Shown: piece after piece, positions 890 to 10,847 of the stretch
Layout: every line of letters begins with the position of its first letter
How positions within the stretch are numbered: position 1 is the stretch's first letter
Origin: Bacteroidales bacterium
GTDB taxonomy: Bacteria > Bacteroidota > Bacteroidia > Bacteroidales > NBLH01
NCBI GenBank assembly: GCA_029933755.1
Contig: JAOZNO010000001.1
Coordinates: forward strand, 1-31,844
Reading direction: 5' to 3'
Length of the DNA: 31,844 nucleotides
The notes under the pieces: model-generated
Told to the model about the DNA's origin: nothing
Database searches by the model: none
The model's input: only the letters and a program-made list of their open reading frames with translations
Made by a program: the position numbers and the translations under genes

Positions 890-1672
890 ATGAAAGTATT
901 TTTAGACGATAGAAAATTAAAGATCCTGGAGCTCATTGCGGGGAAGGAATCTGTTTCGGTTAAGGAGTTAAGCATACTGCTAAAGGTTAGCGAGGCTACC
1001 ATACGGACTGATTTGAGTGTTCTTGAAGAAAGAGGAAAAATTGTTCGATATCATGGTGGTGCACGCCTTATAGAAAATAGGTATAAGCAAGAACTTACCT
1101 ATCAGAATAGAAAGAACCTAAACTTTCAGCAAAAGAAAGAAATCGGGAAGTTTGCAGCAACTTTAATTAAATCTAACGATTCTGTTTTGCTTGATGCTAG
1201 TACAACATCGCTTGCTTTGGCTCAATCTTTAAGAAATAGAGAGGATATAAGAGATGTTACGATTATACCCTTAGGTATTTGGACTGCAATTGAGTTTTTA
1301 GGTTATGATAATTTTAACATTTTGCTTCCGGGTGGCTATCTTAGGCATGCATCTGCCTCTTTGACCGGATTACCGACAAATGATTTTTTTGAAGGGCTTA
1401 TAGTTCAAAAGGCTTTTTTAGGTGCATGGGGAATTTCCGTCGAACAGGGACTAACTGATAGCCATTTGCTAGAAATCGAATTTAAAAAAATGATCTTGAA
1501 AAAAGCAAAAGAAGTTATCGTGATTGTAGATGGGAGCAAGTTTAATCAATCCGGACTTGCCAGCTATGCTTCAATTGATAAAATATCGCAAATAATTACT
1601 GATAAAACAGCTCCGCTTGAAGAAATAGGAAAAATACGCAAACTTGGGGTTAAAGTTATCGTGGCAAGCTAA
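890..1672 (+). CDS. DeoR/GlpR-family transcriptional regulator
   Basis: N-terminal HTH (VSVKELSILLKVSEATIRTDLSVLE, RYHGGA) and C-terminal sugar-phosphate sensor domain (LLDASTT, KAFLG, DGSKF, IITD). Confidence 0.95.
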   Translation: MKVFLDDRKLKILELIAGKESVSVKELSILLKVSEATIRTDLSVLEERGKIVRYHGGARLIENRYKQELTYQNRKNLNFQQKKEIGKFAATLIKSNDSVLLDASTTSLALAQSLRNREDIRDVTIIPLGIWTAIEFLGYDNFNILLPGGYLRHASASLTGLPTNDFFEGLIVQKAFLGAWGISVEQGLTDSHLLEIEFKKMILKKAKEVIVIVDGSKFNQSGLASYASIDKISQIITDKTAPLEEIGKIRKLGVKVIVAS

Positions 1673-1767
1673 TATTTGTCATAAAACAAAATTAGGTGTT
1701 CTATGAAAATTCAAATATCAATGCTAGTTCCGCTATTGCGGAAGCTCTCAAATTTTCAAAGCTCGAT

Positions 1768-1783
1768 TTTACTTTTGTAAATG
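1768..1783 (+). promoter_or_regulatory. Candidate -7 promoter element upstream of pduL
   Basis: TTTACTTTTGTAAATG contains TACTTTTG (TAnnTTTG). The identical 16-mer lies upstream of ackA at 9594-9609. Confidence 0.45.
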
Positions 1784-1881
1784 CGATGTACTAAGCTAGT
1801 TGAAGTAAGTGTTTTGAAAAATTTGTATAACGATGAGATTTGGATATTTAGAGCTTAACTAAGGAGAATAAATTATAAGTT

Positions 1882-2544
1882 ATGATGAATATAGATGAAG
1901 CGGTAATTGATCGTATTGTTGATGAAGTTAAAAAGAATCTTGCTGCTCCGCTTAGTAAAATAAATGGTAATTTAATTCCATTGGGTGTTTCGAACAGGCA
2001 TATACATCTAACACTTCAAACATTCAAAAAACTTTTTGGTGATAATACTGAATTTGAAGTGATGCGTCCTTTATATCAACCCGGCGAATTTGCCTCTAAA
2101 CATGTTGTAACCATTATTGGTGCAAAGCAAAGAAGCATTCAAGGGGTTAGAATACTAGGGCCTTTAAGAAATTATGATCAGGTTGAAGTTTCATTAACCG
2201 ATGCGGTAGTTTTGGGCATTAGCCCTCCGGTTGTTAATTCAGGAACCTTAGATAATGCTTCACCTTTAACTCTTGTTGGACCTAAAGGTTCTGTTTATCT
2301 TAATAAATGTGCAATAGTTGCATCAAGGCATATTCATATGACAAATGCTGATGCCAGAGGATTTGGTGTAAGTGATGGTGATTATTGTAAAGTCCGTATA
2401 GCTGGAGACAAAGGAACTATTTTTGAAAATGTTTTAGTTAGAATTAATGATGACTGGAAGCTTCAAATACATCTTGATACTGACGATGCAAATGCTGCAA
2501 ATGTACGTTCAGAAACTTCTGTTGAATTTGTTGGAAAAATGTAA
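1882..2544 (+). CDS. pduL: PduL-type phosphotransacylase with N-terminal encapsulation peptide
   Basis: Motifs GVSNRHIHL, LYQPGEFA, VRILGP, RHIHM, HLDTDDANAA. N-terminal amphipathic helix IDEAVIDRIVDEVKKNL. Confidence 0.95.
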   Translation: MMNIDEAVIDRIVDEVKKNLAAPLSKINGNLIPLGVSNRHIHLTLQTFKKLFGDNTEFEVMRPLYQPGEFASKHVVTIIGAKQRSIQGVRILGPLRNYDQVEVSLTDAVVLGISPPVVNSGTLDNASPLTLVGPKGSVYLNKCAIVASRHIHMTNADARGFGVSDGDYCKVRIAGDKGTIFENVLVRINDDWKLQIHLDTDDANAANVRSETSVEFVGKM

Positions 2545-2547
2545 ATT

Positions 2548-2835
2548 ATGAAACTCGGACTTGTTATTGGTAAGCTTGTATCAAGTAGAAAAGAAGGCAA
2601 TCTTGATGGTAAAAGAATATTAGTTGTTCGTTATCTTAATGATGAGATGAAAGATACTAAAAAAACGGTAGCTTGTGTTGATACAGTTAATGCTGGTGAG
2701 GGCGAAGTCGTTCTTTTATGTTCTTCATCTTCGGCAAGACTAACAGATACAACTAAAAATGTGGCAGTTGACAATAGTATTATTGGAATTGTAGATTCAA
2801 TTTCTATTGGAAAAGAATATTTATACAAAAAATAA
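2548..2835 (+). CDS. BMC pentamer shell protein (EutN/CcmL family), BMC-P #1
   Basis: VIGKLVSSRK..LDGKRILVV..CVDTVNAGEGEVVLLCSSSSAR..VDNSIIGIVD. Confidence 0.92.
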   Translation: MKLGLVIGKLVSSRKEGNLDGKRILVVRYLNDEMKDTKKTVACVDTVNAGEGEVVLLCSSSSARLTDTTKNVAVDNSIIGIVDSISIGKEYLYKK

Positions 2836-2917
2836 ATTTTAATAGAGTGTGTCCATAATGTCACTATTTGTAGAGCTTTGTGTGTTTGAAACGTATTTTA
2901 AAATGTGAACAAGTTGG

Positions 2918-2979
2918 CAGTAAACAGTCTACAGTACGCAGCAGATCTGCAAAGTCTGCTTACTGAGAACTGAAGACTG
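2918..2979. repeat. Inverted heptamer-periodic REP-like element inside the BMC operon
   Basis: CAGT at 2918, 2925, 2932 and ACTG at 2962, 2969, 2976 (period 7 on both arms), around a GCAGATCTGC palindrome at 2941-2950. Confidence 0.6.
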
Positions 2980-3056
2980 TTCTCGTTTCTAAGAAGAAAA
3001 GAAATTTAAATTAGTAAATGGCTGACTTTATAGACTAAATCTAAATAGAATCATAG

Positions 3057-3353
3057 GTGGAAATATCTTTACAAAAAATAATCGAAATTGTTACCGAAGA
3101 AGTAATAAAGGAGTTAATTAAAAAAGGCATTAAAATAGATGAGTCTTTTATTAGAAAAACTGAAAACAACAATAATAATAAGTCATTTGAGATTGATATG
3201 AGGAGGTTTAAAACGCCTATTGTAACAGAAAACATATTAGGTTCAATTGATAAAAATATTAATAAAATAATTGTTCCGGCTAAAACTATTATTACGCCGG
3301 GGGCAAGGCATATAGTTAAGAAAAATAAACTTACTATAATTTACAAATCTTAA
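3057..3353 (+). CDS. Small BMC-associated protein: encapsulation peptide plus EutQ-N-terminus-like domain
   Basis: GTG start. N-terminal amphipathic LQKIIEIVTEEVIKELIKK, Asn-rich linker, C-terminal IVTENIL..TIITPGARHIVKK resembling the IITPxAR motif of BMC accessory proteins. Confidence 0.7.
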   Translation: MEISLQKIIEIVTEEVIKELIKKGIKIDESFIRKTENNNNNKSFEIDMRRFKTPIVTENILGSIDKNINKIIVPAKTIITPGARHIVKKNKLTIIYKS

Positions 3354-3368
3354 TAAATATATAGAATC

Positions 3369-3650
3369 ATGGTAAAAGGAGTCGCTTTAGGTTTTGTTGA
3401 AACACGGGGTAATACCGGAGCTATTAATGCAATTGATGCAATGCTCAAAACCGCAAATGTTGAATTTTCAAAGAAAGTTGAAATAGGTGGTGCATATATA
3501 ACTGTTATTGTCAGAGGCGAAGTAGGTGCAGTACGATCATCTGTTGAAGCTGGTGCAGAAGCAGCTGCCAAAATTGGTGAGTTGGTTAGTACAAATATTA
3601 TTGCCTCAGCCGATGAGGAAGTTTTTGATTTAATTGGTATAAAAAAATAG
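3369..3650 (+). CDS. BMC hexamer shell protein, BMC-H #1 (divergent C-terminus)
   Basis: ALGFVETRG..IDAMLKTANV..IGGAYITVIVRGEVGAVRSSVEAG. Lacks the usual C-terminal PRP/RP motif. Confidence 0.93.
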   Translation: MVKGVALGFVETRGNTGAINAIDAMLKTANVEFSKKVEIGGAYITVIVRGEVGAVRSSVEAGAEAAAKIGELVSTNIIASADEEVFDLIGIKK

Positions 3651-3659
3651 GAGGAAAAA

Positions 3660-3962
3660 ATGATAGAAGCATTAGGAATTATCGAAACCATTGGGTTCAC
3701 TGCCGCCATTGAAGCAGCAGATGCGGCTGTAAAATCAGCAAATATTAAGCTTGGTAACTGGGTTAAAGTTGGTGGCGGACATGTAAATATTATTATTCGT
3801 GGTGATGTTGCATCAGTAAAGGCTGCCGTTGAGGCTGGTGTTGAAGCTGCATCAAGAATTGGTACTGTACAGTCTCAAGTGGTATTACCTCGTCCATCAG
3901 ATAAGTTGATGCCTAAATTTCAACTTGATCCTATTAAAGCAGTAAAAAAAACAACTAAATAA
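3660..3962 (+). CDS. BMC hexamer shell protein, BMC-H #2
   Basis: ALGIIETIG..AADAAVKSANI..VGGGHV..RGDVASVKAAVEAG..VLPRP. AGGAGG at 3649-3654, 5 nt before the ATG. Confidence 0.95.
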   Translation: MIEALGIIETIGFTAAIEAADAAVKSANIKLGNWVKVGGGHVNIIIRGDVASVKAAVEAGVEAASRIGTVQSQVVLPRPSDKLMPKFQLDPIKAVKKTTK

Positions 3963-3973
3963 TCTGACTCAAT

Positions 3974-5407
3974 ATGAATTTTGATATTAGTGAGACACAA
4001 TTAAACGATATTGTTGAAAATGTTGTAAGGCAAGTTGTATCGCAAACCACTAATTCTGAAAATAGCATTATTGAGTCTGGTAAAGGCGACAATGGTGTTT
4101 TTGAAGACATGAACGATGCAGTAGAAGCTGCTTATGTGGCATTTCAGGAGTATAAGGAAAGAAGTACTCAGTGCAGAAAAGATATTACTGATGCAATTAG
4201 GAAAATGGCAATTGACCACAAAGAAGAACTCTCTCAATTAACTATAGAAGAGACGACTATGGGAAGGCTTGATCATAAAATTGCAAAATACATAAACGCT
4301 TCAGAAAACAGTCCAGGTGTTGAAGATTTACAACCCCGGGCTTGGTCAGGAAAAAATGGTTTGGCTCTTGATGAATATGCACCATTTGGCGTAATAGGTA
4401 ATATTTCTCCTAGTACACATCCAGGACCGGTATTGATTAATAATATTATTATTCAGTTAGCTGGTGGAAATACCATTGCTTTCAATCCGCATCCAAATGC
4501 AAAAAAAATTAGCAATAAAGTTATTCAACTGGCTAATAAATATATGATTGAAGCTGGTGCACCGGCAAATTTGGTTACAAGTATTAAAGAGCCTACTTTA
4601 CAATCGGCTGAAGCTTTATTTAGTCACGAAAAAGTTGCTTTTCTTTCTGTAACAGGAGGTCCGCAAGTTGTTGAAATGGCTCAAAAGTTTCCAAAAAAAC
4701 TTATGGCAGCCGGCCCGGGTAACCCACCTGTCTTGGTTGACGAAACAGCTGATCTTGTTCATGCGGCAAAAGAAATTACGGATAGTGCAAGTTTTGATAA
4801 CAATATTCTTTGTATAGGCGAGAAAGAAATATTTGTCGTTGAATCAGTTTTCGATGCATTTATGAGTGAAATGGAAAAGGTCGGAAATGTTAGGCTTACA
4901 ACCAGCCAAATGGACGAGCTTGGAGAGAAAGCATTGTTTCAGTCAGGTGAACATTGGCTGATAGGAAGAGATCTTGTTGGAAAAAATGCAAAGGTACTGG
5001 CAAATGCAATAGGATTAAATGTATCTGAAAATGCTCCATTATTAATTGGAGAAACGGATAAGAATCATCCATGGGTATTAGCAGAACAAATGACCTGTTG
5101 TATTCCTGTAGTCAAAGTAAAAGATTTTAAAGAAGGAACTCAGGCTGCGATTGAAGCCGAACACGGATTCAGGCACACAGCCAGCGTATTTACCAAAGAT
5201 ATAGACCGTGCTACAAAATATAGCAGGGTGTTGGATTGTACTGTTAATGTTATAAATGGCGGTACTCTTAGGGGAAATGGTGGCGATTTAGGTGAAGGAT
5301 ACTTTTCACACACTATTGCAACCCCAACCGGCGAGGGTATTACTACTCCTCTTGACTTTGTTAGGAAACGACGTATAATGACTCATCCGGCATTACGATT
5401 TATTTAA
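3974..5407 (+). CDS. CoA-acylating aldehyde dehydrogenase (EutE/PduP family) with N-terminal encapsulation peptide
   Basis: PFGVIGNISPSTHP, FNPHPNAK, VTGGPQVV, AAGPGNPPVLVDETAD, catalytic SFDNNILCIGEKE, TIATPTGEG. N-terminal helix ISETQLNDIVENVVRQVVS. Confidence 0.95.
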   Translation: MNFDISETQLNDIVENVVRQVVSQTTNSENSIIESGKGDNGVFEDMNDAVEAAYVAFQEYKERSTQCRKDITDAIRKMAIDHKEELSQLTIEETTMGRLDHKIAKYINASENSPGVEDLQPRAWSGKNGLALDEYAPFGVIGNISPSTHPGPVLINNIIIQLAGGNTIAFNPHPNAKKISNKVIQLANKYMIEAGAPANLVTSIKEPTLQSAEALFSHEKVAFLSVTGGPQVVEMAQKFPKKLMAAGPGNPPVLVDETADLVHAAKEITDSASFDNNILCIGEKEIFVVESVFDAFMSEMEKVGNVRLTTSQMDELGEKALFQSGEHWLIGRDLVGKNAKVLANAIGLNVSENAPLLIGETDKNHPWVLAEQMTCCIPVVKVKDFKEGTQAAIEAEHGFRHTASVFTKDIDRATKYSRVLDCTVNVINGGTLRGNGGDLGEGYFSHTIATPTGEGITTPLDFVRKRRIMTHPALRFI

Positions 5408-5437
5408 AAATTTACAAATATTAAAGGAGAATATAAA

Positions 5438-5710
5438 ATGGCAGCAAGAAACGCAATTGGAATTTTAGAAACAAAAGGATTTGCCTGTTTGGTAATAGGG
5501 GCAGATACAGCTCTTAAATCAGCAAATGTTGAACTTGTAGAGTGGAGACAAGTTGGTAGCGGTTATGTGTCTTTTGTTATTGAAGGCGATGTGGCAGCAG
5601 TTAGGGCTTCTATTGAAGCTGGTGCGGAAGCCGCATCTAAAGTGGGACAAGTATTATCCCAATTAATTATAGCACGTCCTGTAGATGAAATTGACACAAT
5701 ATTTTCATAA
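5438..5710 (+). CDS. BMC hexamer shell protein, BMC-H #3
   Basis: AIGILETKG..GADTALKSANV..VGSGYV..EGDVAAVRASIEAG..IIARP. AAGGAG at 5424-5429. Confidence 0.95.
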   Translation: MAARNAIGILETKGFACLVIGADTALKSANVELVEWRQVGSGYVSFVIEGDVAAVRASIEAGAEAASKVGQVLSQLIIARPVDEIDTIFS

Positions 5711-5721
5711 GCTAATTATTT

Positions 5722-6000
5722 ATGATTTTTGCAAAAGTTATAGGAACAATTGTTTCTACTCAGAAGGATCCTAATCTGAATGGTAAAAAACTATTGCTAT
5801 GCAAGGAAGTGGATCACAGTGGGAAACCCCTGGAAACTTATCATGTGGCCGTAGATGCGGTGCAAGCCGGTGAAGGAAGTTTTGTGCTTCTTTCATATGG
5901 TTCTTCTGCCCGCATGACTGATGAAACAAAAAATGCACCTATTGATGCAGTTGTAATAGCAATAATTGATGATGTTCAGATAACACATCAATTTAAATAA
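5722..6000 (+). CDS. BMC pentamer shell protein, BMC-P #2 (canonical)
   Basis: AKVIGTIVSTQKDPNLNGKKLLL..AVDAVQAGEG..GSSAR..PIDAVVIAIID. Confidence 0.95.
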   Translation: MIFAKVIGTIVSTQKDPNLNGKKLLLCKEVDHSGKPLETYHVAVDAVQAGEGSFVLLSYGSSARMTDETKNAPIDAVVIAIIDDVQITHQFK

Positions 6001-6007
6001 AAGACAG

Positions 6008-6271
6008 ATGAAACTTGGGGTAGTTATTGGTGTAGTTTGGGCTTCACGGAAAGTCGAGGCGCTAGATGCTTGCAGAATGTATATTGTACAACCTGTTTCG
6101 TCTGAAAACAATCCGGTAGAGTCACCTTTGGTGGTTGCTGACCCTAAAGGTTTAGCGGCTTCAGGTGATAAAATTGTTTATGTTACCAGTACAGATGCCG
6201 TAGAGGCTTTTGATAGTGGTTTTGTTCCGGTAAATGCTAGTGTTATTGAACTGGTTGATGTAGTTGTTTAA
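6008..6271 (+). CDS. BMC pentamer shell protein, BMC-P #3 (divergent)
   Basis: MKLGVVIGVVWASRK..YIVQP..VADPKGLAASGDKIVYVTSTDA..PVNASVIELVD. Confidence 0.85.
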   Translation: MKLGVVIGVVWASRKVEALDACRMYIVQPVSSENNPVESPLVVADPKGLAASGDKIVYVTSTDAVEAFDSGFVPVNASVIELVDVVV

Positions 6272-6311
6272 CCTGCACTATTTAAAGAGAATTTATGAAT
6301 TAATCAGGTTA

Positions 6312-6590
6312 ATGTTTTTAGCAAAAATCATAAGAAAAGTAATTTCAACAGAAAAACATGATGCCTATAAAGGCAGAATTGTTTTTGTTGTTCAACCTGT
6401 AAAACCTAATGGTGAAAATATTGGTAATGAATGGGTAGCTGTAGATTATGTTGGTGCCGGAGTTGGCGATACGATTATTTGTGGCGGTGCTCCCGGAGTG
6501 TCAAAAAATATATTTAAACTTGAATTGGCTCCAATAAGGACTTTAATAATAGCGGTAGTTGATAAAATCGACTATAGGGATATAGAATAA
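6312..6590 (+). CDS. BMC pentamer shell protein, BMC-P #4 (divergent)
   Basis: Start moved from the ORF-track 6264 to ATG 6312: MFLAKIIRKVISTEKH..VVQP..AVDYVGAGVGDTII..PIRTLIIAVVD. Confidence 0.87.
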   Translation: MFLAKIIRKVISTEKHDAYKGRIVFVVQPVKPNGENIGNEWVAVDYVGAGVGDTIICGGAPGVSKNIFKLELAPIRTLIIAVVDKIDYRDIE

Positions 6591-6697
6591 TTTTCATGTG
6601 TTTATTTTTGATTATTTTTATTTGCCACATGTTACCGCATGATGTAAAATAATCATTGCCTTGAATGTTTAATAATTATTTTAATCATGCTTGTTTC

Positions 6698-7996
6698 ATG
6701 ACAATAAAAGAAATAGAAAGTTTAGGAATTGTTGGTGCTGGTGGAGCAGGTTTTCCTACGCATGTGAAGCTAAACAGCAAGCCTGATACTATTATTATGA
6801 ATGCAGCGGAATGTGAGCCTCTGCTTCATAAGGATATGGAGCTTATTTTGAACTATACCGATAAAGTTTTGCTTGGTTTGAAAATAGTAATGGAAATTAC
6901 TGGTGCAAAACAAGGTATTATTGGAATAAAAGAGAAGCATCCCCACGAAATAGACTTGTTAAACTCAAAGGTTTCGGGCAATATAAAAGTAATACCTATT
7001 GAAGATATTTATCCTGCCGGAGATGAGGTAACTTTGATTTACATGACCACAAAAAGAGTTGTTCAGCCAGGTGCTCTTCCTATTTCCGTGGGCTGCGTAG
7101 TGCAAAATGTTGAAACATTATTGAATATTGGATTAGGAAAACCCGTTACAGATAAATATGTATCAATTGCAGGTGCGGTTGAAAAGCCGGCAACTGTGAG
7201 AGTTCCGGTTGGAACTACTTATGCTGAGATATTGTCCCACTTTAAAATTACGGTTGATGATTATTCAATTCGTGTAGGTGGGCTAATGATGGGAGCACTT
7301 GAAGCTGATTTGAATTCAGTTGTTGATAAAAAAACTGGGGCATTAATCGTCCTTCCCTCTGATCATCACTGTGTGAATGTTTACAATCGATTTGCCTTAG
7401 AAGAATATACTGATAAAATTGCTAAAGCAGCCTGCGATCAATGTACTTTTTGTACAGAATTATGCCCCAGGTATCTTCTTGGTCAGCCTGTAATGCCTAA
7501 TATTGCAATGAAGAACAGAATGTTTTCCAATTTAGAACAAAAGGTGGTTTTTGCAGGCAATTTTTCTTGCTGCGAGTGTAATTTATGTACTATGTATGCT
7601 TGTCCTGAAGGCCTCGATCCAAGAGGTGCAACAGTTATGGAAAAAAGATGGTCAAGAGAACTGGGATTAAAATGGGATGGAAAAGAAGCAGTTCCGCATC
7701 CTATGAATGATTATCGGAAAGTTCCGACACAAAAACTAATGCAAAGGCTTGATGTATTAATGTTTAAAGATGAAGGGCCTTTAATTGAACTAAATTTATC
7801 TTCAACAGAAGTTCGTATCCCTTTTAACAAACACATTGGAGCCGTTTCGCAACCAATTGTTAATGTTGGGCAAATCGTAAATAAATACGAACTGATAGCC
7901 AGGGCTAATGGTCAGGTTTCAAGCAATATACATTCATCAATAGATGGAATAGTTAAAAACATTTCAGAAACAGAAATATTAATACAAAAAAATTGA
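6698..7996 (+). CDS. pduS: PduS/RnfC-like flavin/Fe-S oxidoreductase
   Basis: GIVGAGGAGFPTHVK, NAAECEPLL, YPAGDE, QNVET, SLBB-like region, two Fe-S motifs (CDQCTFCTELCP; CCECNLCTMYACP), C-terminal sandwich domain (HIGA..HSSIDG). Start probably ATG 6698 rather than 6665. Confidence 0.9.
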   Translation: MTIKEIESLGIVGAGGAGFPTHVKLNSKPDTIIMNAAECEPLLHKDMELILNYTDKVLLGLKIVMEITGAKQGIIGIKEKHPHEIDLLNSKVSGNIKVIPIEDIYPAGDEVTLIYMTTKRVVQPGALPISVGCVVQNVETLLNIGLGKPVTDKYVSIAGAVEKPATVRVPVGTTYAEILSHFKITVDDYSIRVGGLMMGALEADLNSVVDKKTGALIVLPSDHHCVNVYNRFALEEYTDKIAKAACDQCTFCTELCPRYLLGQPVMPNIAMKNRMFSNLEQKVVFAGNFSCCECNLCTMYACPEGLDPRGATVMEKRWSRELGLKWDGKEAVPHPMNDYRKVPTQKLMQRLDVLMFKDEGPLIELNLSSTEVRIPFNKHIGAVSQPIVNVGQIVNKYELIARANGQVSSNIHSSIDGIVKNISETEILIQKN

Positions 7997-8568
7997 TGCT
8001 GACAAGAAACGCAATAGGGATAATAGAGCTTTCCAGTATAACTAAAGGTTATCAGGTACAGGATGCTGTACTGAAATCTTCTAATACAGAAAAGCTAATT
8101 TCCAGATCTATTTGCCCTGGAAAATACTTCATAGTAATTAAAGGCGATGTAGCGGATATAGAAATTGCAATTAGTATAGCAAAGGAAACGGGTGGTTATG
8201 CAATAGTTAATTTAACTTCTATCCCCAATTTGGATCCAAAAGTTTTTCCGGCCATTACAAGTTCTAATGTAATTGAACATGATAAGGATCAGAAAAAAGT
8301 TGGAGCATTGCTAATTATTGAAACTTTTTCAGTTGTTTCGGCAATAAAGGCCGCAGATTTTGCTGCAAAGGAAGCAGAACTTGATATCCGGCATATTCAT
8401 GTAGCAATGGCAATAGGCGGGAAAGGAGTAGTTGTTATTACTGGTGAAATAAGTGCACTGGAAGCGGCAGTTATACCTGCTATTGAATATTGTAAAGAAG
8501 ATGGAATGCTTGCGGACTATACAATTGTACGTAACCCGCACCCAGAAGTTTTAAAAGAGTTAATATAA
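7996..8568 (+). CDS. pduT: PduT-like tandem-domain shell protein (BMC-T) with pore Cys
   Basis: AIGIIELSSITKG, ICPGKY (cluster-binding Cys motif), second domain IETFSVVSAIKAADFAAK..AIGGKG. ATG at 7996 overlaps the pduS stop (TGATG). Confidence 0.9.
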   Translation: MLTRNAIGIIELSSITKGYQVQDAVLKSSNTEKLISRSICPGKYFIVIKGDVADIEIAISIAKETGGYAIVNLTSIPNLDPKVFPAITSSNVIEHDKDQKKVGALLIIETFSVVSAIKAADFAAKEAELDIRHIHVAMAIGGKGVVVITGEISALEAAVIPAIEYCKEDGMLADYTIVRNPHPEVLKELI

Positions 8569-8587
8569 AAATAAAAAGGATAATATT

Positions 8588-9409
8588 ATGGCTACAGAAT
8601 TTGAAATTAAGAAACAGATTGTAGAAATTGGGAAAAGAATTTGGACAAGAGGCTATGTTGCTTCTAATGACGGTAATATGACCGTAAAATTGAACGACAA
8701 GGAGATACTTGCTACACCAACAGGAATTAGCAAAGGGTATATGACTGAGGATATGATAATTAAATGCGACCTTGACGGGAACGTTATTTCCGGGAATCCG
8801 AAATATAAACCATCAAGTGAGGTTAAAATGCACCTTGCCGTGTATAAAGCACGACCTGATATAAAATCAGTAGTACATGCACATCCACCTTATGCTACAA
8901 GTTTTGCTGTTGCAGGAATACCATTGGACAAATGTGTGCTTCCGGAAGCAATTATTGTAATTGGTGCTGTACCTATTGCGCCATATGGCTTACCTTCTAC
9001 TATGGAAATACCTGACAGGATGATGCCTTTTATTAAAGATTCAGATGTGATTTTATTAGAAAATCACGGGGCTTTAACCTTTGGGACTGATTTGTTGAAT
9101 GCATATCATAAAATGGAAACGCTTGAGCATACTGCAAACATTGTTTGGAAATCTATTCAATTAGGGAATGTTAACATTATGCCTTCTAAAGAACGTGACC
9201 GTTTATTAGCCTTAAGAGAAAAATTCAATTTAACAGGAGAAGTAGCAGCTTGTAATACAGCACCTTTGGGACAGGAATCGCAAAATATCATGGCTTTTGG
9301 TCAATATTCAAAAAATCAGAAACAAGAAACAAATGATACAAATACTGTTTCAGAAGATGCTATTAAAGAAATAGTTGGTAAAGTTTTGGATAAACTTAGA
9401 AATAGTTAG
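8588..9409 (+). CDS. Class II (metal) aldolase, FucA/RhaD/AraD family, with C-terminal encapsulation peptide
   Basis: GNMT, TPTGISKG, PSSEVKMH, metal ligands HAH and ENHG. C-terminal helix VSEDAIKEIVGKVLDKLRNS after a polar linker. Confidence 0.93.
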   Translation: MATEFEIKKQIVEIGKRIWTRGYVASNDGNMTVKLNDKEILATPTGISKGYMTEDMIIKCDLDGNVISGNPKYKPSSEVKMHLAVYKARPDIKSVVHAHPPYATSFAVAGIPLDKCVLPEAIIVIGAVPIAPYGLPSTMEIPDRMMPFIKDSDVILLENHGALTFGTDLLNAYHKMETLEHTANIVWKSIQLGNVNIMPSKERDRLLALREKFNLTGEVAACNTAPLGQESQNIMAFGQYSKNQKQETNDTNTVSEDAIKEIVGKVLDKLRNS

Positions 9410-9593
9410 TAAGCACTAAGTGCTATTTAATGTTGCTTACGCACTCGTGCAAAGCTCTTACTATATGCAGGTTGCTTAAATATACAAATAAAAATGTCAC
9501 GGAACTTACTTGCTAATTAGTGCATGAACGGAAACTAAGTGTTTGGATGGGAAATTTTAAGTTCTAGGCTTGTGAAATCTTAAAATTCAAGAG

Positions 9594-9609
9594 TTTACTT
9601 TTGTAAATG
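9594..9609 (+). promoter_or_regulatory. Candidate -7 promoter element upstream of ackA
   Basis: TTTACTTTTGTAAATG, identical to 1768-1783, contains TAnnTTTG. Confidence 0.45.
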
Positions 9610-9674
9610 ATTGTTTTTTAAGATGAGTATAACGAAGAAATTGGAATTTCCGGTCAAACACTAATTACTAAAAT

Positions 9675-10847
9675 ATGAAAATCTTAATTGCAAATCCCGG
9701 GAGTACTTCTTACAAATGTAAGCTTTATGATGCCGATGATATGACTATTCTTTTTGAAGCAACAGTAGAAAGAATCGGTTCTGATGATGGTATTTACTCT
9801 TATAATTTTTTTGGTTCAGAAATAAAGTCTGAAGTGCTTGATATACCAAATTATTATAAGGCGGTAGAGCTTACAGTTGAATCATTAAAAGGAAAATATT
9901 CAGTTGATGAACTTTCTGCAGTAGGTTTTAAAACGGTTCATGCCAAGGGAGTTACAGGTTGTGTTGAGCTTAGTGAAGATGTGCTTAATGCCATGGAGGA
10001 GTATAGGTTTTTGGCACCTGTACACACAGATGTGTATATAACCGCTATTGCTATTTTTAAAGAATTATTACCAACAAAGCCTTTGGTTGGATTATTTGAA
10101 ACTCACTTTCATAAAAACATTCCTGCTGAAGCTTATATGTATGGAATCCCATATGAACTGTATAAGAAACATGGAATAAGAAAATTTGGGTTTCATGGCT
10201 CATCACATAGATATATTGGGCAACAGGCCAAAGAGTTATTTGGTGCTGACAAAGTAATTTCCTGTCACCTTGGCGGAAGCTCATCTGTTTGTGCCATCAA
10301 AGATGGTTGGTCTATTGATACTTCTATGGGGATGAGTCCACAAAGTGGCTTGCTAAATGCAAAGCGGGTAGGGGATTTGGATCCATTTGCACTTTTATTT
10401 TTGATGGAAAAAGAAAAGCTTTCACCCGAAGAAATGGGGAATATTCTTATGTCAAATGGAGGCCTTTACGGTATATCCGGTGTGAAAAGTGGTGATTTTC
10501 GTGATATTGAAGAAAAAATGGCCAAAGGAGATCAGCGCTCCCAGCTTGCTTTCGATACTTTTGCATACTATGTTAAAAGGTATATTGGTGAGTATATAGC
10601 TATTTTAAACGGTGCTGATTGCATTGTCTTTACTGCAGGCGCAGGTCAAAAAAGCCCCTTGCTTCGTAAAACAATACTATCCAATATGGAAAACATAGGT
10701 ATTACGCTTGATGATAAAAAAAATAACTCGAAACTTTCAGAGGGGTTAATTTCAAGTAGTGATTCAAAAATAAAAGTAGCTGTTATACCAACAAATGAAG
10801 AGTATATTGTTGCCTCAGAAGTAAAAAAATATTTAGCTGGGCTCTGA
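9675..10847 (+). CDS. ackA: Acetate/short-chain acyl kinase, divergent active site
   Basis: ANPGSTSYK, ERIG, GFHGSSH, CHLGG, DTSMG, RVGDLDP, PTNEE. Confidence 0.92.
   Translation: MKILIANPGSTSYKCKLYDADDMTILFEATVERIGSDDGIYSYNFFGSEIKSEVLDIPNYYKAVELTVESLKGKYSVDELSAVGFKTVHAKGVTGCVELSEDVLNAMEEYRFLAPVHTDVYITAIAIFKELLPTKPLVGLFETHFHKNIPAEAYMYGIPYELYKKHGIRKFGFHGSSHRYIGQQAKELFGADKVISCHLGGSSSVCAIKDGWSIDTSMGMSPQSGLLNAKRVGDLDPFALLFLMEKEKLSPEEMGNILMSNGGLYGISGVKSGDFRDIEEKMAKGDQRSQLAFDTFAYYVKRYIGEYIAILNGADCIVFTAGAGQKSPLLRKTILSNMENIGITLDDKKNNSKLSEGLISSSDSKIKVAVIPTNEEYIVASEVKKYLAGL

Follow-up and report, generated by a model that had tools for sequence, protein, structure and literature searches.

The locus and its pduS-pduT pair

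A metabolosome has to regenerate its NAD+ within a protein shell. We analysed a 31,844-nucleotide stretch of DNA from a Bacteroidales bacterium (positions 1 to 31,844, forward strand, of contig JAOZNO010000001.1, GenBank assembly GCA_029933755.1), referred to here as the window. It carries a bacterial microcompartment (BMC) locus at 890-10847, in which two adjoining genes, pduS and pduT, would probably serve this purpose in the place of an alcohol dehydrogenase. The locus comprises 15 genes, all in one orientation on the plus strand. A Pfam search of all 15 open reading frames (ORFs) assigned 14 of them to a family, leaving a single 98-amino-acid (98-aa) ORF without a match. The set consists of a DeoR-family regulator, a PduL-type phosphotransacylase (PTAC), four EutN-type BMC-P (pentamer) and three BMC-H shell proteins, an aldehyde dehydrogenase (AldDH), PduS-like and PduT-like proteins, a class II aldolase, an acetate kinase and the 98-aa ORF. 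Families of alcohol or lactate dehydrogenases, B12-dependent enzymes and glycyl-radical enzymes are all absent from the 15 assignments, in agreement with what a first-pass annotation of the sequence had claimed for this interval.

The pduS gene (6698-7996) encodes a homologue of the flavoprotein that Sutter et al. 2024 PNAS (PMC11626177) renamed MNdh, PduT becoming BMC-T^SE in the same scheme. Its start at 6698 is favoured over an upstream ATG at 6665, because homologues align from residue 1 and likewise measure 432 aa. The protein has no encapsulation peptide. Its domains run in the order Complex1_51K (pfam01512; residues 6-144, E 3e-44), SLBB (pfam10531; 154-180, a weak match under the Pfam cut-off), Fer4_17 (245-307) and RnfC_N (pfam13375; 368-427). 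Two Fe-S motifs are present, C246-x2-C249-x2-C252-x3-C256-P and C291/C292-x-C294-x2-C297-x4-C302-P. Both of these, together with the glycine motif of the flavin mononucleotide (FMN)/NADH site (GAGGAGFPTHVK), fall in register with RnfC of PDB 7zc6, which bears out the earlier reading of two intact Fe-S motifs. The match to RnfC (E 2e-45) divides into two pieces and so shows the circular permutation already described for this protein family: the FMN/NADH domain, the SLBB domain and the two 4Fe-4S motifs are shared, whereas the RnfC_N barrel of window PduS is C-terminal and its partner is a shell protein rather than a set of membrane subunits. The four-domain order, the eight cluster Cys with the glycine motif, and the adjoining BMC-T^SE gene in an AldDH-bearing locus thus assign window PduS to the MNdh-type NADH dehydrogenases.

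The stop codon of pduS (TGA, 7994-7996) shares one nucleotide with the ATG of pduT (7996-7998), giving the TGATG at 7994-7998 that the first-pass annotation had read there; pduT could also start from an in-frame TTG (7993). This arrangement would aid co-production of the two proteins. PduT (7996-8568) contains two BMC domains (pfam00936) and a SICPGKY segment with Cys40, the ICPGK motif occupying residues 39-43. These tandem domains and the pore Cys motif are those of a single-layer BMC-T^SE shell trimer. It matches the PduT-type structures 3n79, 3pac and 3nwg over its full length (E 1e-33 to 1e-35; 1.5e-33 for 3n79), and Cys40 aligns with the pore Cys of all three, as had been supposed from the motif. 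The best NCBIfam match is eut_PduT, at 108 bits against a cut-off of 250. By homology to the Salmonella and Citrobacter PduT proteins, window PduT may be expected to bind a 4Fe-4S cluster on its three-fold axis. The intact domains and cofactor motifs of the two proteins are consistent with oxidation of NADH by PduS and electron transfer to such a cluster.

When PduS was modelled together with a PduT trimer, the complex scored 0.87, against 0.48 for the best of three controls. In calibration, a score of 0.87 was met by 51/78 solved complexes and 2/108 mismatched pairs, a set from which this multi-copy job differs in kind. On the PduS side, the modelled interface is formed by the two Fe-S motifs (residues 243-255 and 303-306), and on the PduT side by residues 40-43 (the pore loop) and 67-72. 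X-ray footprinting of the Clostridium botulinum complex places Cys38 and Phe67-Val69 at the lumenal interface (PMC11626177), and the modelled PduT surface matches this footprint after a numbering offset of +2. The model is supportive of docking between the Fe-S domain of PduS and the pore of trimeric PduT.

The remaining genes supply an enzymatic core and the rest of the shell. The class II aldolase (8588-9409; Pfam Aldolase_II E 3e-49, residues 10-185), of the fuculose-/rhamnulose-1-phosphate type, is the signature enzyme of the locus and is predicted to release lactaldehyde. Inspection of the protein termini showed that it ends in a linker followed by a C-terminal encapsulation peptide, SEDAIKEIVGKVLDKLRNS, and that the CoA-acylating AldDH (3974-5407; Pfam Aldedh; NCBIfam PRK15398, 549 bits against a cut-off of 403) begins with one, ETQLNDIVENVVRQVV, followed by a linker. 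The PduL-type PTAC (1882-2544; Pfam PTAC E 1.5e-67, residues 34-208) carries an N-terminal encapsulation-peptide-like helix, DEAVIDRIVDEVKKNL. The acetate-kinase family protein (9675-10847; Pfam Acetate_kinase E 1.4e-99) has no encapsulation peptide and would provide a cytosolic ATP-yielding step.

Shell proteins with Pfam BMC domains are encoded by two BMC-H genes (3369-3650 and 3660-3962) and a third (5438-5710). Those with Pfam EutN_CcmL domains comprise a first BMC-P paralogue (2548-2835) and a BMC-P triplet (5722-6000, 6008-6271 and approximately 6312-6590). The last BMC-P ORF is listed from a TTG at 6264 (6264-6590). Its true start is probably the ATG at 6312, because the EutN domain begins only at residue 17 of the longer ORF; this start leaves no overlap with the preceding BMC-P gene.

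Between the first BMC-P and the first BMC-H gene lies the conserved 98-aa protein (3057-3353). All syntenic loci described below encode it at this point, and a counterpart of ~100 aa sits there in every MIC4-like locus (L010-L061). In the window protein, an N-terminus resembling an encapsulation peptide is joined by a low-complexity NNNNN linker to a small C-terminal domain containing IITPGARHIVKK; NCBIfam gives a weak hit, to the C-terminal part of TIGR02536 ('eut_hyp', E 3.3e-4). The locus opens with the DeoR-family regulator (890-1672; Pfam HTH_DeoR and DeoRC), which occupies the same position in most syntenic loci. Upstream of it, at 813-849, are three CGAAAA units plus one AGAAAA with a spacing of 10-11 bp; this CGAAAA triple is the only one in the genome assembly and fits a locus-specific operator.

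Conservation of the pair and the search for an alcohol dehydrogenase

A scan of species-representative genomes with window PduS yielded 80 loci, whose ORFs were called and then labelled by BLAST. In 46 of them the genes follow, without omission, the order DeoR-PduL-P-orf98-H-H-AldDH-H-P-P-P-PduS-PduT-aldolase-kinase. Their hosts belong to Ignavibacteria, Melioribacter, Calditrichota, KSB1, Kryptoniota, Zhuqueibacterota and other lineages, and their PduS proteins are 56-81% identical to that of the window. The closest relatives of the source genome itself are Ignavibacteria-type metagenome-assembled genomes (MAGs). A second group, mostly Acidobacteriota (Terracidiphilus; L063-L089), has PduS identities of 45-48% and a pduS-pduT pair divergent from a similar core, in which genes for DeoR, aldolase, BMC-P, AldDH, BMC-H, PduL and kinase lie on one strand in a PVM/MIC4-like arrangement.

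The two genes are neighbours in essentially all 80 loci. In the first group, stop and start codons overlap in 41 of the 50 readable junctions (33 by 1 nt, 7 by 4 nt, 1 otherwise), while gaps of 6 to >100 nt, and no overlap, are typical of the Acidobacteriota group. The eight PduS cluster Cys are conserved in 80-81 of 81 sequences and the PduT pore Cys in 77 of 77, the pore motif of the relatives being ICSGK (75) or ICPGK (2), so that C-S-G-K deviates slightly from the published CP(G/S)K. This degree of retention, at the junction and at the cofactor sites alike, argues that the overlap seen in the window is not due to chance. Five loci from some Bacteroidota, Calditrichia and Planctomycetota MAGs (L020, L031, L043, L085 and L087) contain pduS-pduT, sometimes with the aldolase, but neither shell genes nor an AldDH gene closer than 10 kb; here the module occurs as a satellite-type copy.

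Whether an alcohol dehydrogenase serves the locus from elsewhere was examined across the same loci and in the source genome. The latter is a 5.1-Mb MAG of 1089 contigs, and its completeness of 87% bounds all genome-wide statements. Using queries from the source genome, no homologue of the iron-containing alcohol dehydrogenases (Fe-ADH), zinc-dependent alcohol dehydrogenases (Zn-ADH), aldo-keto reductases (AKR) or lactate/malate dehydrogenases (Ldh/Mdh) was detected inside any of the 46 syntenic loci; a distant threonine-dehydrogenase-like gene lies ~10 kb upstream of two of them. The source genome encodes four Fe-ADH family proteins (on contigs C304, C1066, C589 and C631), all without terminal extensions, and none of the four reaches the equivalog cut-off for lactaldehyde reductase (FucO), the best scoring 275 bits against 523. 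It also encodes three Zn-ADH proteins and one Ldh/Mdh (Ldh_1_N) protein, the latter on contig C411. Of these four, only the Zn-ADH on contig C131 was inspected closely, and it has no encapsulation-peptide-like extension.

This last gene belongs to a fucose cluster (C131; L106:923-8762) that encodes a kinase, FucI, FucU, a DkgA-like AKR, the Zn-dependent dehydrogenase and FucP. The dehydrogenase is threonine-dehydrogenase-like and lies under every equivalog cut-off. Its product and the AKR are candidate cytosolic lactaldehyde reductases, and neither bears an encapsulation peptide.

A satellite encapsulated alcohol dehydrogenase had been set beforehand as an observation that would speak against the proposal, and none was found in the 87%-complete assembly. 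A satellite locus, whether for a shell or for an encapsulated alcohol dehydrogenase, was rejected: BMC domains in the source genome are confined to this window, and the Fe-ADH proteins and the C131 Zn-ADH are without extensions. Two relatives bearing the same BMC locus, G002 (L029; a closed 4.5-Mb chromosome) and G003 (L019; 7.4 Mb, mostly in one 7.2-Mb contig), encode no Fe-ADH above the Pfam cut-off anywhere in their genomes. Both carry Zn-ADH family genes, all of them distant from the BMC locus. Signs of co-regulation were likewise sought, and the CGAAAA repeat is missing from both the C131 fucose cluster and a rhamnose cluster on contig C785; a search for shared intergenic 11-mers returned AT-rich chance matches only, from which no regulon could be defined.

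The genes that adjoin the locus in its relatives connect it to sugar and lactate metabolism. A sugar kinase gene is present beside 25 of the 46 syntenic loci, lutB or a lutABC-type set beside 14, fucI beside 10 and rhaA beside 6. In L027 (13944-18217), L029 (13913-20160) and 12 further loci, genes for an FGGY sugar kinase and LutABC-type proteins (LUD-domain, Fe-S and CCG) follow directly downstream of the BMC kinase, and some of these lut-linked relatives also bear fucI or rhaA there. In the window, the corresponding region contains unrelated housekeeping genes (HAD hydrolase, PdxA and M17 peptidase) in place of the sugar kinase and lut genes. The rhamnose cluster of the source genome (C785; L107:6024-13466) encodes a RhaT-like transporter, RhaA, a kinase, a 428-aa aldolase, LutA and LutB, after which the contig ends. 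This aldolase has two class II domains in tandem and no encapsulation peptide, so that the genome encodes, next to the encapsulated aldolase, another that is apparently cytosolic. The lut linkage is circumstantial evidence for a route in which lactaldehyde would give lactate and ATP, an NAD-independent enzyme would then oxidise the lactate to pyruvate, and no 1:1 split with 1,2-propanediol would take place.

Relation to known locus types

The catalog of Sutter et al. 2021 (PMC8217296, Supplementary Data 2) describes a locus type, MIC4, with 15 loci that include Melioribacter roseus MROS_0101 and the genes following it, and with hosts in Ignavibacteria, Calditrichaeota, KSB1, Bacteroidetes and others. 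"MIC" denotes a metabolosome with incomplete core, in which part of the usual core enzymes is missing (PMC8217296); what the window locus lacks is the alcohol dehydrogenase. Both have an AldDH with an N-terminal encapsulation peptide, a PTAC, a pfam00596 aldolase and a pfam00871 kinase, and lack an alcohol dehydrogenase. The shell is likewise the same, with two similar and one unusual BMC-H, a BMC-P triplet plus an extra BMC-P, and PduS beside a PduT-type BMC-T with a pore Cys. We therefore assign the window locus to MIC4 by its enzyme set and by the families and numbers of its shell genes. Nothing essential differs between the two descriptions, save that our census holds 46 syntenic loci versus 15, many with an adjoining sugar kinase, fucI/rhaA or lutABC.

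The PVM locus of Planctomyces limnophilus (Erbilgin et al. 2014), in so far as it is described in PMC4207490, resembles the window locus in its class II aldolase, AldDH, PduL, acetate kinase, DeoR regulator and multiple BMC-P proteins, and in its predicted substrates, fucose and rhamnose metabolised via lactaldehyde. PVM loci also include a gene of the lactate/malate dehydrogenase family that is predicted to fulfil the alcohol dehydrogenase function (PMC4207490), whereas the window locus has no such gene. Moreover, PduS/PduT pairs are rare in PVM loci and mostly confined to satellite loci (18/20; PMC11626177), while that of the window is part of the main operon. Identification of the window locus as PVM or PVM-like was rejected in favour of MIC4: the core is present, but a Ldh/Mdh-family gene is not found in 890-10847.

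Among the studied PduS/PduT pairs, those of Salmonella enterica (PDU1) are homologous to the window proteins, and Salmonella PduS binds FMN, two 4Fe-4S clusters and PduT. Two further PDU1 enzymes, the alcohol dehydrogenase PduQ and a B12-dependent diol dehydratase, have no counterpart in the window locus. A close mechanistic counterpart is the MNdh/BMC-T^SE pair of the C. botulinum GRM1 locus. This consists of a four-domain flavo-Fe-S protein with a C-terminal RnfC_N domain and a tandem BMC-T protein whose pore Cys belongs to a C(P/S)GK loop, encoded by adjoining genes that co-occur with AldDH, with the same predicted interface between Fe-S domain and pore loop and an identical proposed role. 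The C. botulinum locus is a choline GRM1, and the window locus an aldolase/lactaldehyde MIC4 without an alcohol dehydrogenase in the locus, and so without redundancy; the window pair is known from sequence.

Both the observation and its interpretation are thus already in the literature, the former as the MIC4 type (PMC8217296) and the latter as the MNdh/BMC-T^SE mechanism (PMC11626177). That mechanism is supported by NADH oxidation kinetics, electron paramagnetic resonance (EPR), voltammetry and footprinting. In the same study, 97% of MNdh genes adjoin a BMC-T^SE gene, and 361 loci contain a PduS/PduT pair but no alcohol dehydrogenase. The gain claimed for such loci is that the whole of the substrate is converted to the CoA product and an alcohol side product is avoided (PMC11626177). 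Electron shuttling by PduS and PduT in loci without B12 enzymes had already been raised by Axen et al. 2014 (PMC4207490). New in the present analysis are a broader survey of MIC4-like loci, the conservation of the gene overlap, a model of the complex, the finding that no encapsulated alcohol dehydrogenase is detected in the 87%-complete genome, and the linkage to lut genes.

Proposed lumenal NAD+ regeneration and its alternatives

We are now able to propose how the organelle would function. To judge from its genes and their relatives, the window locus probably encodes a MIC4-type, PVM-related metabolosome in which lumenal NAD+ is regenerated by electron export through PduS and PduT instead of by an alcohol dehydrogenase. 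The encapsulated class II aldolase would cleave L-fuculose-1-phosphate or L-rhamnulose-1-phosphate to dihydroxyacetone phosphate and L-lactaldehyde, which the encapsulated AldDH would convert to lactyl-CoA with formation of NADH. PduL would then produce lactyl-phosphate, and the kinase outside the shell would yield lactate and ATP. PduS, an RnfC/NuoF-like flavoprotein, would oxidise the lumenal NADH at its FMN, regenerating NAD+, and pass the electrons through its two 4Fe-4S clusters to a 4Fe-4S cluster that the PduT trimer would hold in its pore by one Cys40 from each subunit. From there they would exit to a cytosolic acceptor. Since an encapsulation peptide is missing from PduS, docking on PduT is the probable means of its recruitment. 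The first-pass annotation had proposed that PduS and PduT reoxidise AldDH-derived NADH through the shell, so that all the aldehyde could enter the ATP-yielding branch, and this proposal gains support from the cofactor motifs, the synteny, the modelled complex and the absence of an alcohol dehydrogenase.

Several points weigh against this interpretation. The C131 AKR and Zn-ADH, together with the four Fe-ADH proteins, are candidate cytosolic aldehyde reductases, and because the genome encodes them, a 1,2-propanediol branch outside the shell is possible. As the assembly is 87% complete, an encapsulated alcohol dehydrogenase could sit in the missing part. A gene for the cytosolic electron acceptor is not linked to the locus. 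The published evidence for electron export was obtained in vitro with O2 as acceptor (PMC11626177). The complex was modelled without Fe-S clusters, and its high score may partly reflect likeness to known family members. As for any MIC4 organelle, the function proposed for this PduS/PduT pair rests on homology.

The strongest competing explanation draws on the cytosolic reductases. According to this, NAD+ would be recycled mainly in the cytosol, with NAD(H) or lactaldehyde crossing the shell and 1,2-propanediol being made, and PduS/PduT would act as an accessory or condition-specific valve. In its favour, the fucose cluster encodes two candidate aldehyde reductases and the genome four Fe-ADH family proteins besides, while knockouts of pduS or pduT in Salmonella merely slow growth, and exchange of cofactors via larger pores has been deemed possible (PMC11626177). 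Against this, the candidate reductases have no N- or C-terminal extension resembling an encapsulation peptide, all miss the lactaldehyde-reductase cut-off, and homologues of the C131 pair adjoin none of the 46 syntenic loci. The two near-complete relatives manage without an Fe-ADH above cut-off, the pduS-pduT pair is fixed within the operon with its overlap conserved, and the repeat upstream of deoR is not shared by the fucose and rhamnose clusters. We consider this explanation unlikely.

Less probable still is that PduS and PduT carry electrons inward, or that PduS is a reductase, in the service of a lumenal radical-enzyme activase or of lactaldehyde reduction to propanediol. Both ideas have been raised for PduS homologues in loci without B12 enzymes, as speculation for SPU and GRM5 (Axen et al. 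2014, PMC4207490), and the source genome does encode two glycyl-radical enzyme systems. These lie, however, on other contigs with their own activases and no shell genes, and no MIC4-like locus contains a glycyl-radical enzyme. PduS aligns with RnfC along its entire length and has no additional substrate domain, the sole lumenal redox enzyme is the NADH-producing AldDH, and published EPR and voltammetry favour flow from NADH to FMN, Fe-S clusters and BMC-T^SE (PMC11626177). A role of PduS as a cobalamin reductase serving a B12-dependent enzyme scarcely merits belief here. It was the first assignment made for Salmonella PduS (Cheng and Bobik 2010; Parsons et al. 2010, as cited in PMC4207490), but the Pfam assignments of the locus include no B12-dependent enzyme, EutB was not found in the genome assembly by a search whose control was positive, and a direct B12 role is disputed by Sutter et al. 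2024 (PMC11626177). A search of the genome for diol dehydratase gave no match, yet its control also gave none.

Of the two glycyl-radical systems, that on contig C344 (L095) is trans-4-hydroxy-L-proline dehydratase-like (HypD-like) and is cut by the contig end, and that on C552 (L108:367-4964) is an unassigned member of the PFL2 family and adjoins a GntR-type regulator. Each has its own activase and neither is linked to shell genes, and both were rejected as partners of PduS/PduT.

Electron export by PduS and PduT is thus the preferred interpretation, and a bolder form of it can be put forward more tentatively, with the odds somewhat against it. Here, PduS/PduT of MIC4 would be the sole and obligatory regenerator of lumenal NAD+, wired to an oxidative, respiration-linked route from lactaldehyde to lactate and ATP, and onwards to pyruvate via the NAD-independent LutABC, with no 1,2-propanediol formed.

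Electron export through Fe-S clusters in shell pores is a recent paradigm with in vitro support, and the window locus brings no new principle to it. Rather, it is one of a lineage of loci that is widespread in environmental bacteria (Ignavibacteria, Calditrichota, KSB1 and others) and whose operons have the module built in, with no alcohol dehydrogenase as backup. Such loci offer the cleanest natural setting for a genetic test of the model, for the identity of the cytosolic acceptor, and for the routing of fucose and rhamnose carbon to lactate and pyruvate. If PduS/PduT should indeed prove to be the sole regenerator, MIC4 would constitute a natural, non-redundant system for electron export across a shell in vivo, with Melioribacter roseus as a cultured carrier.

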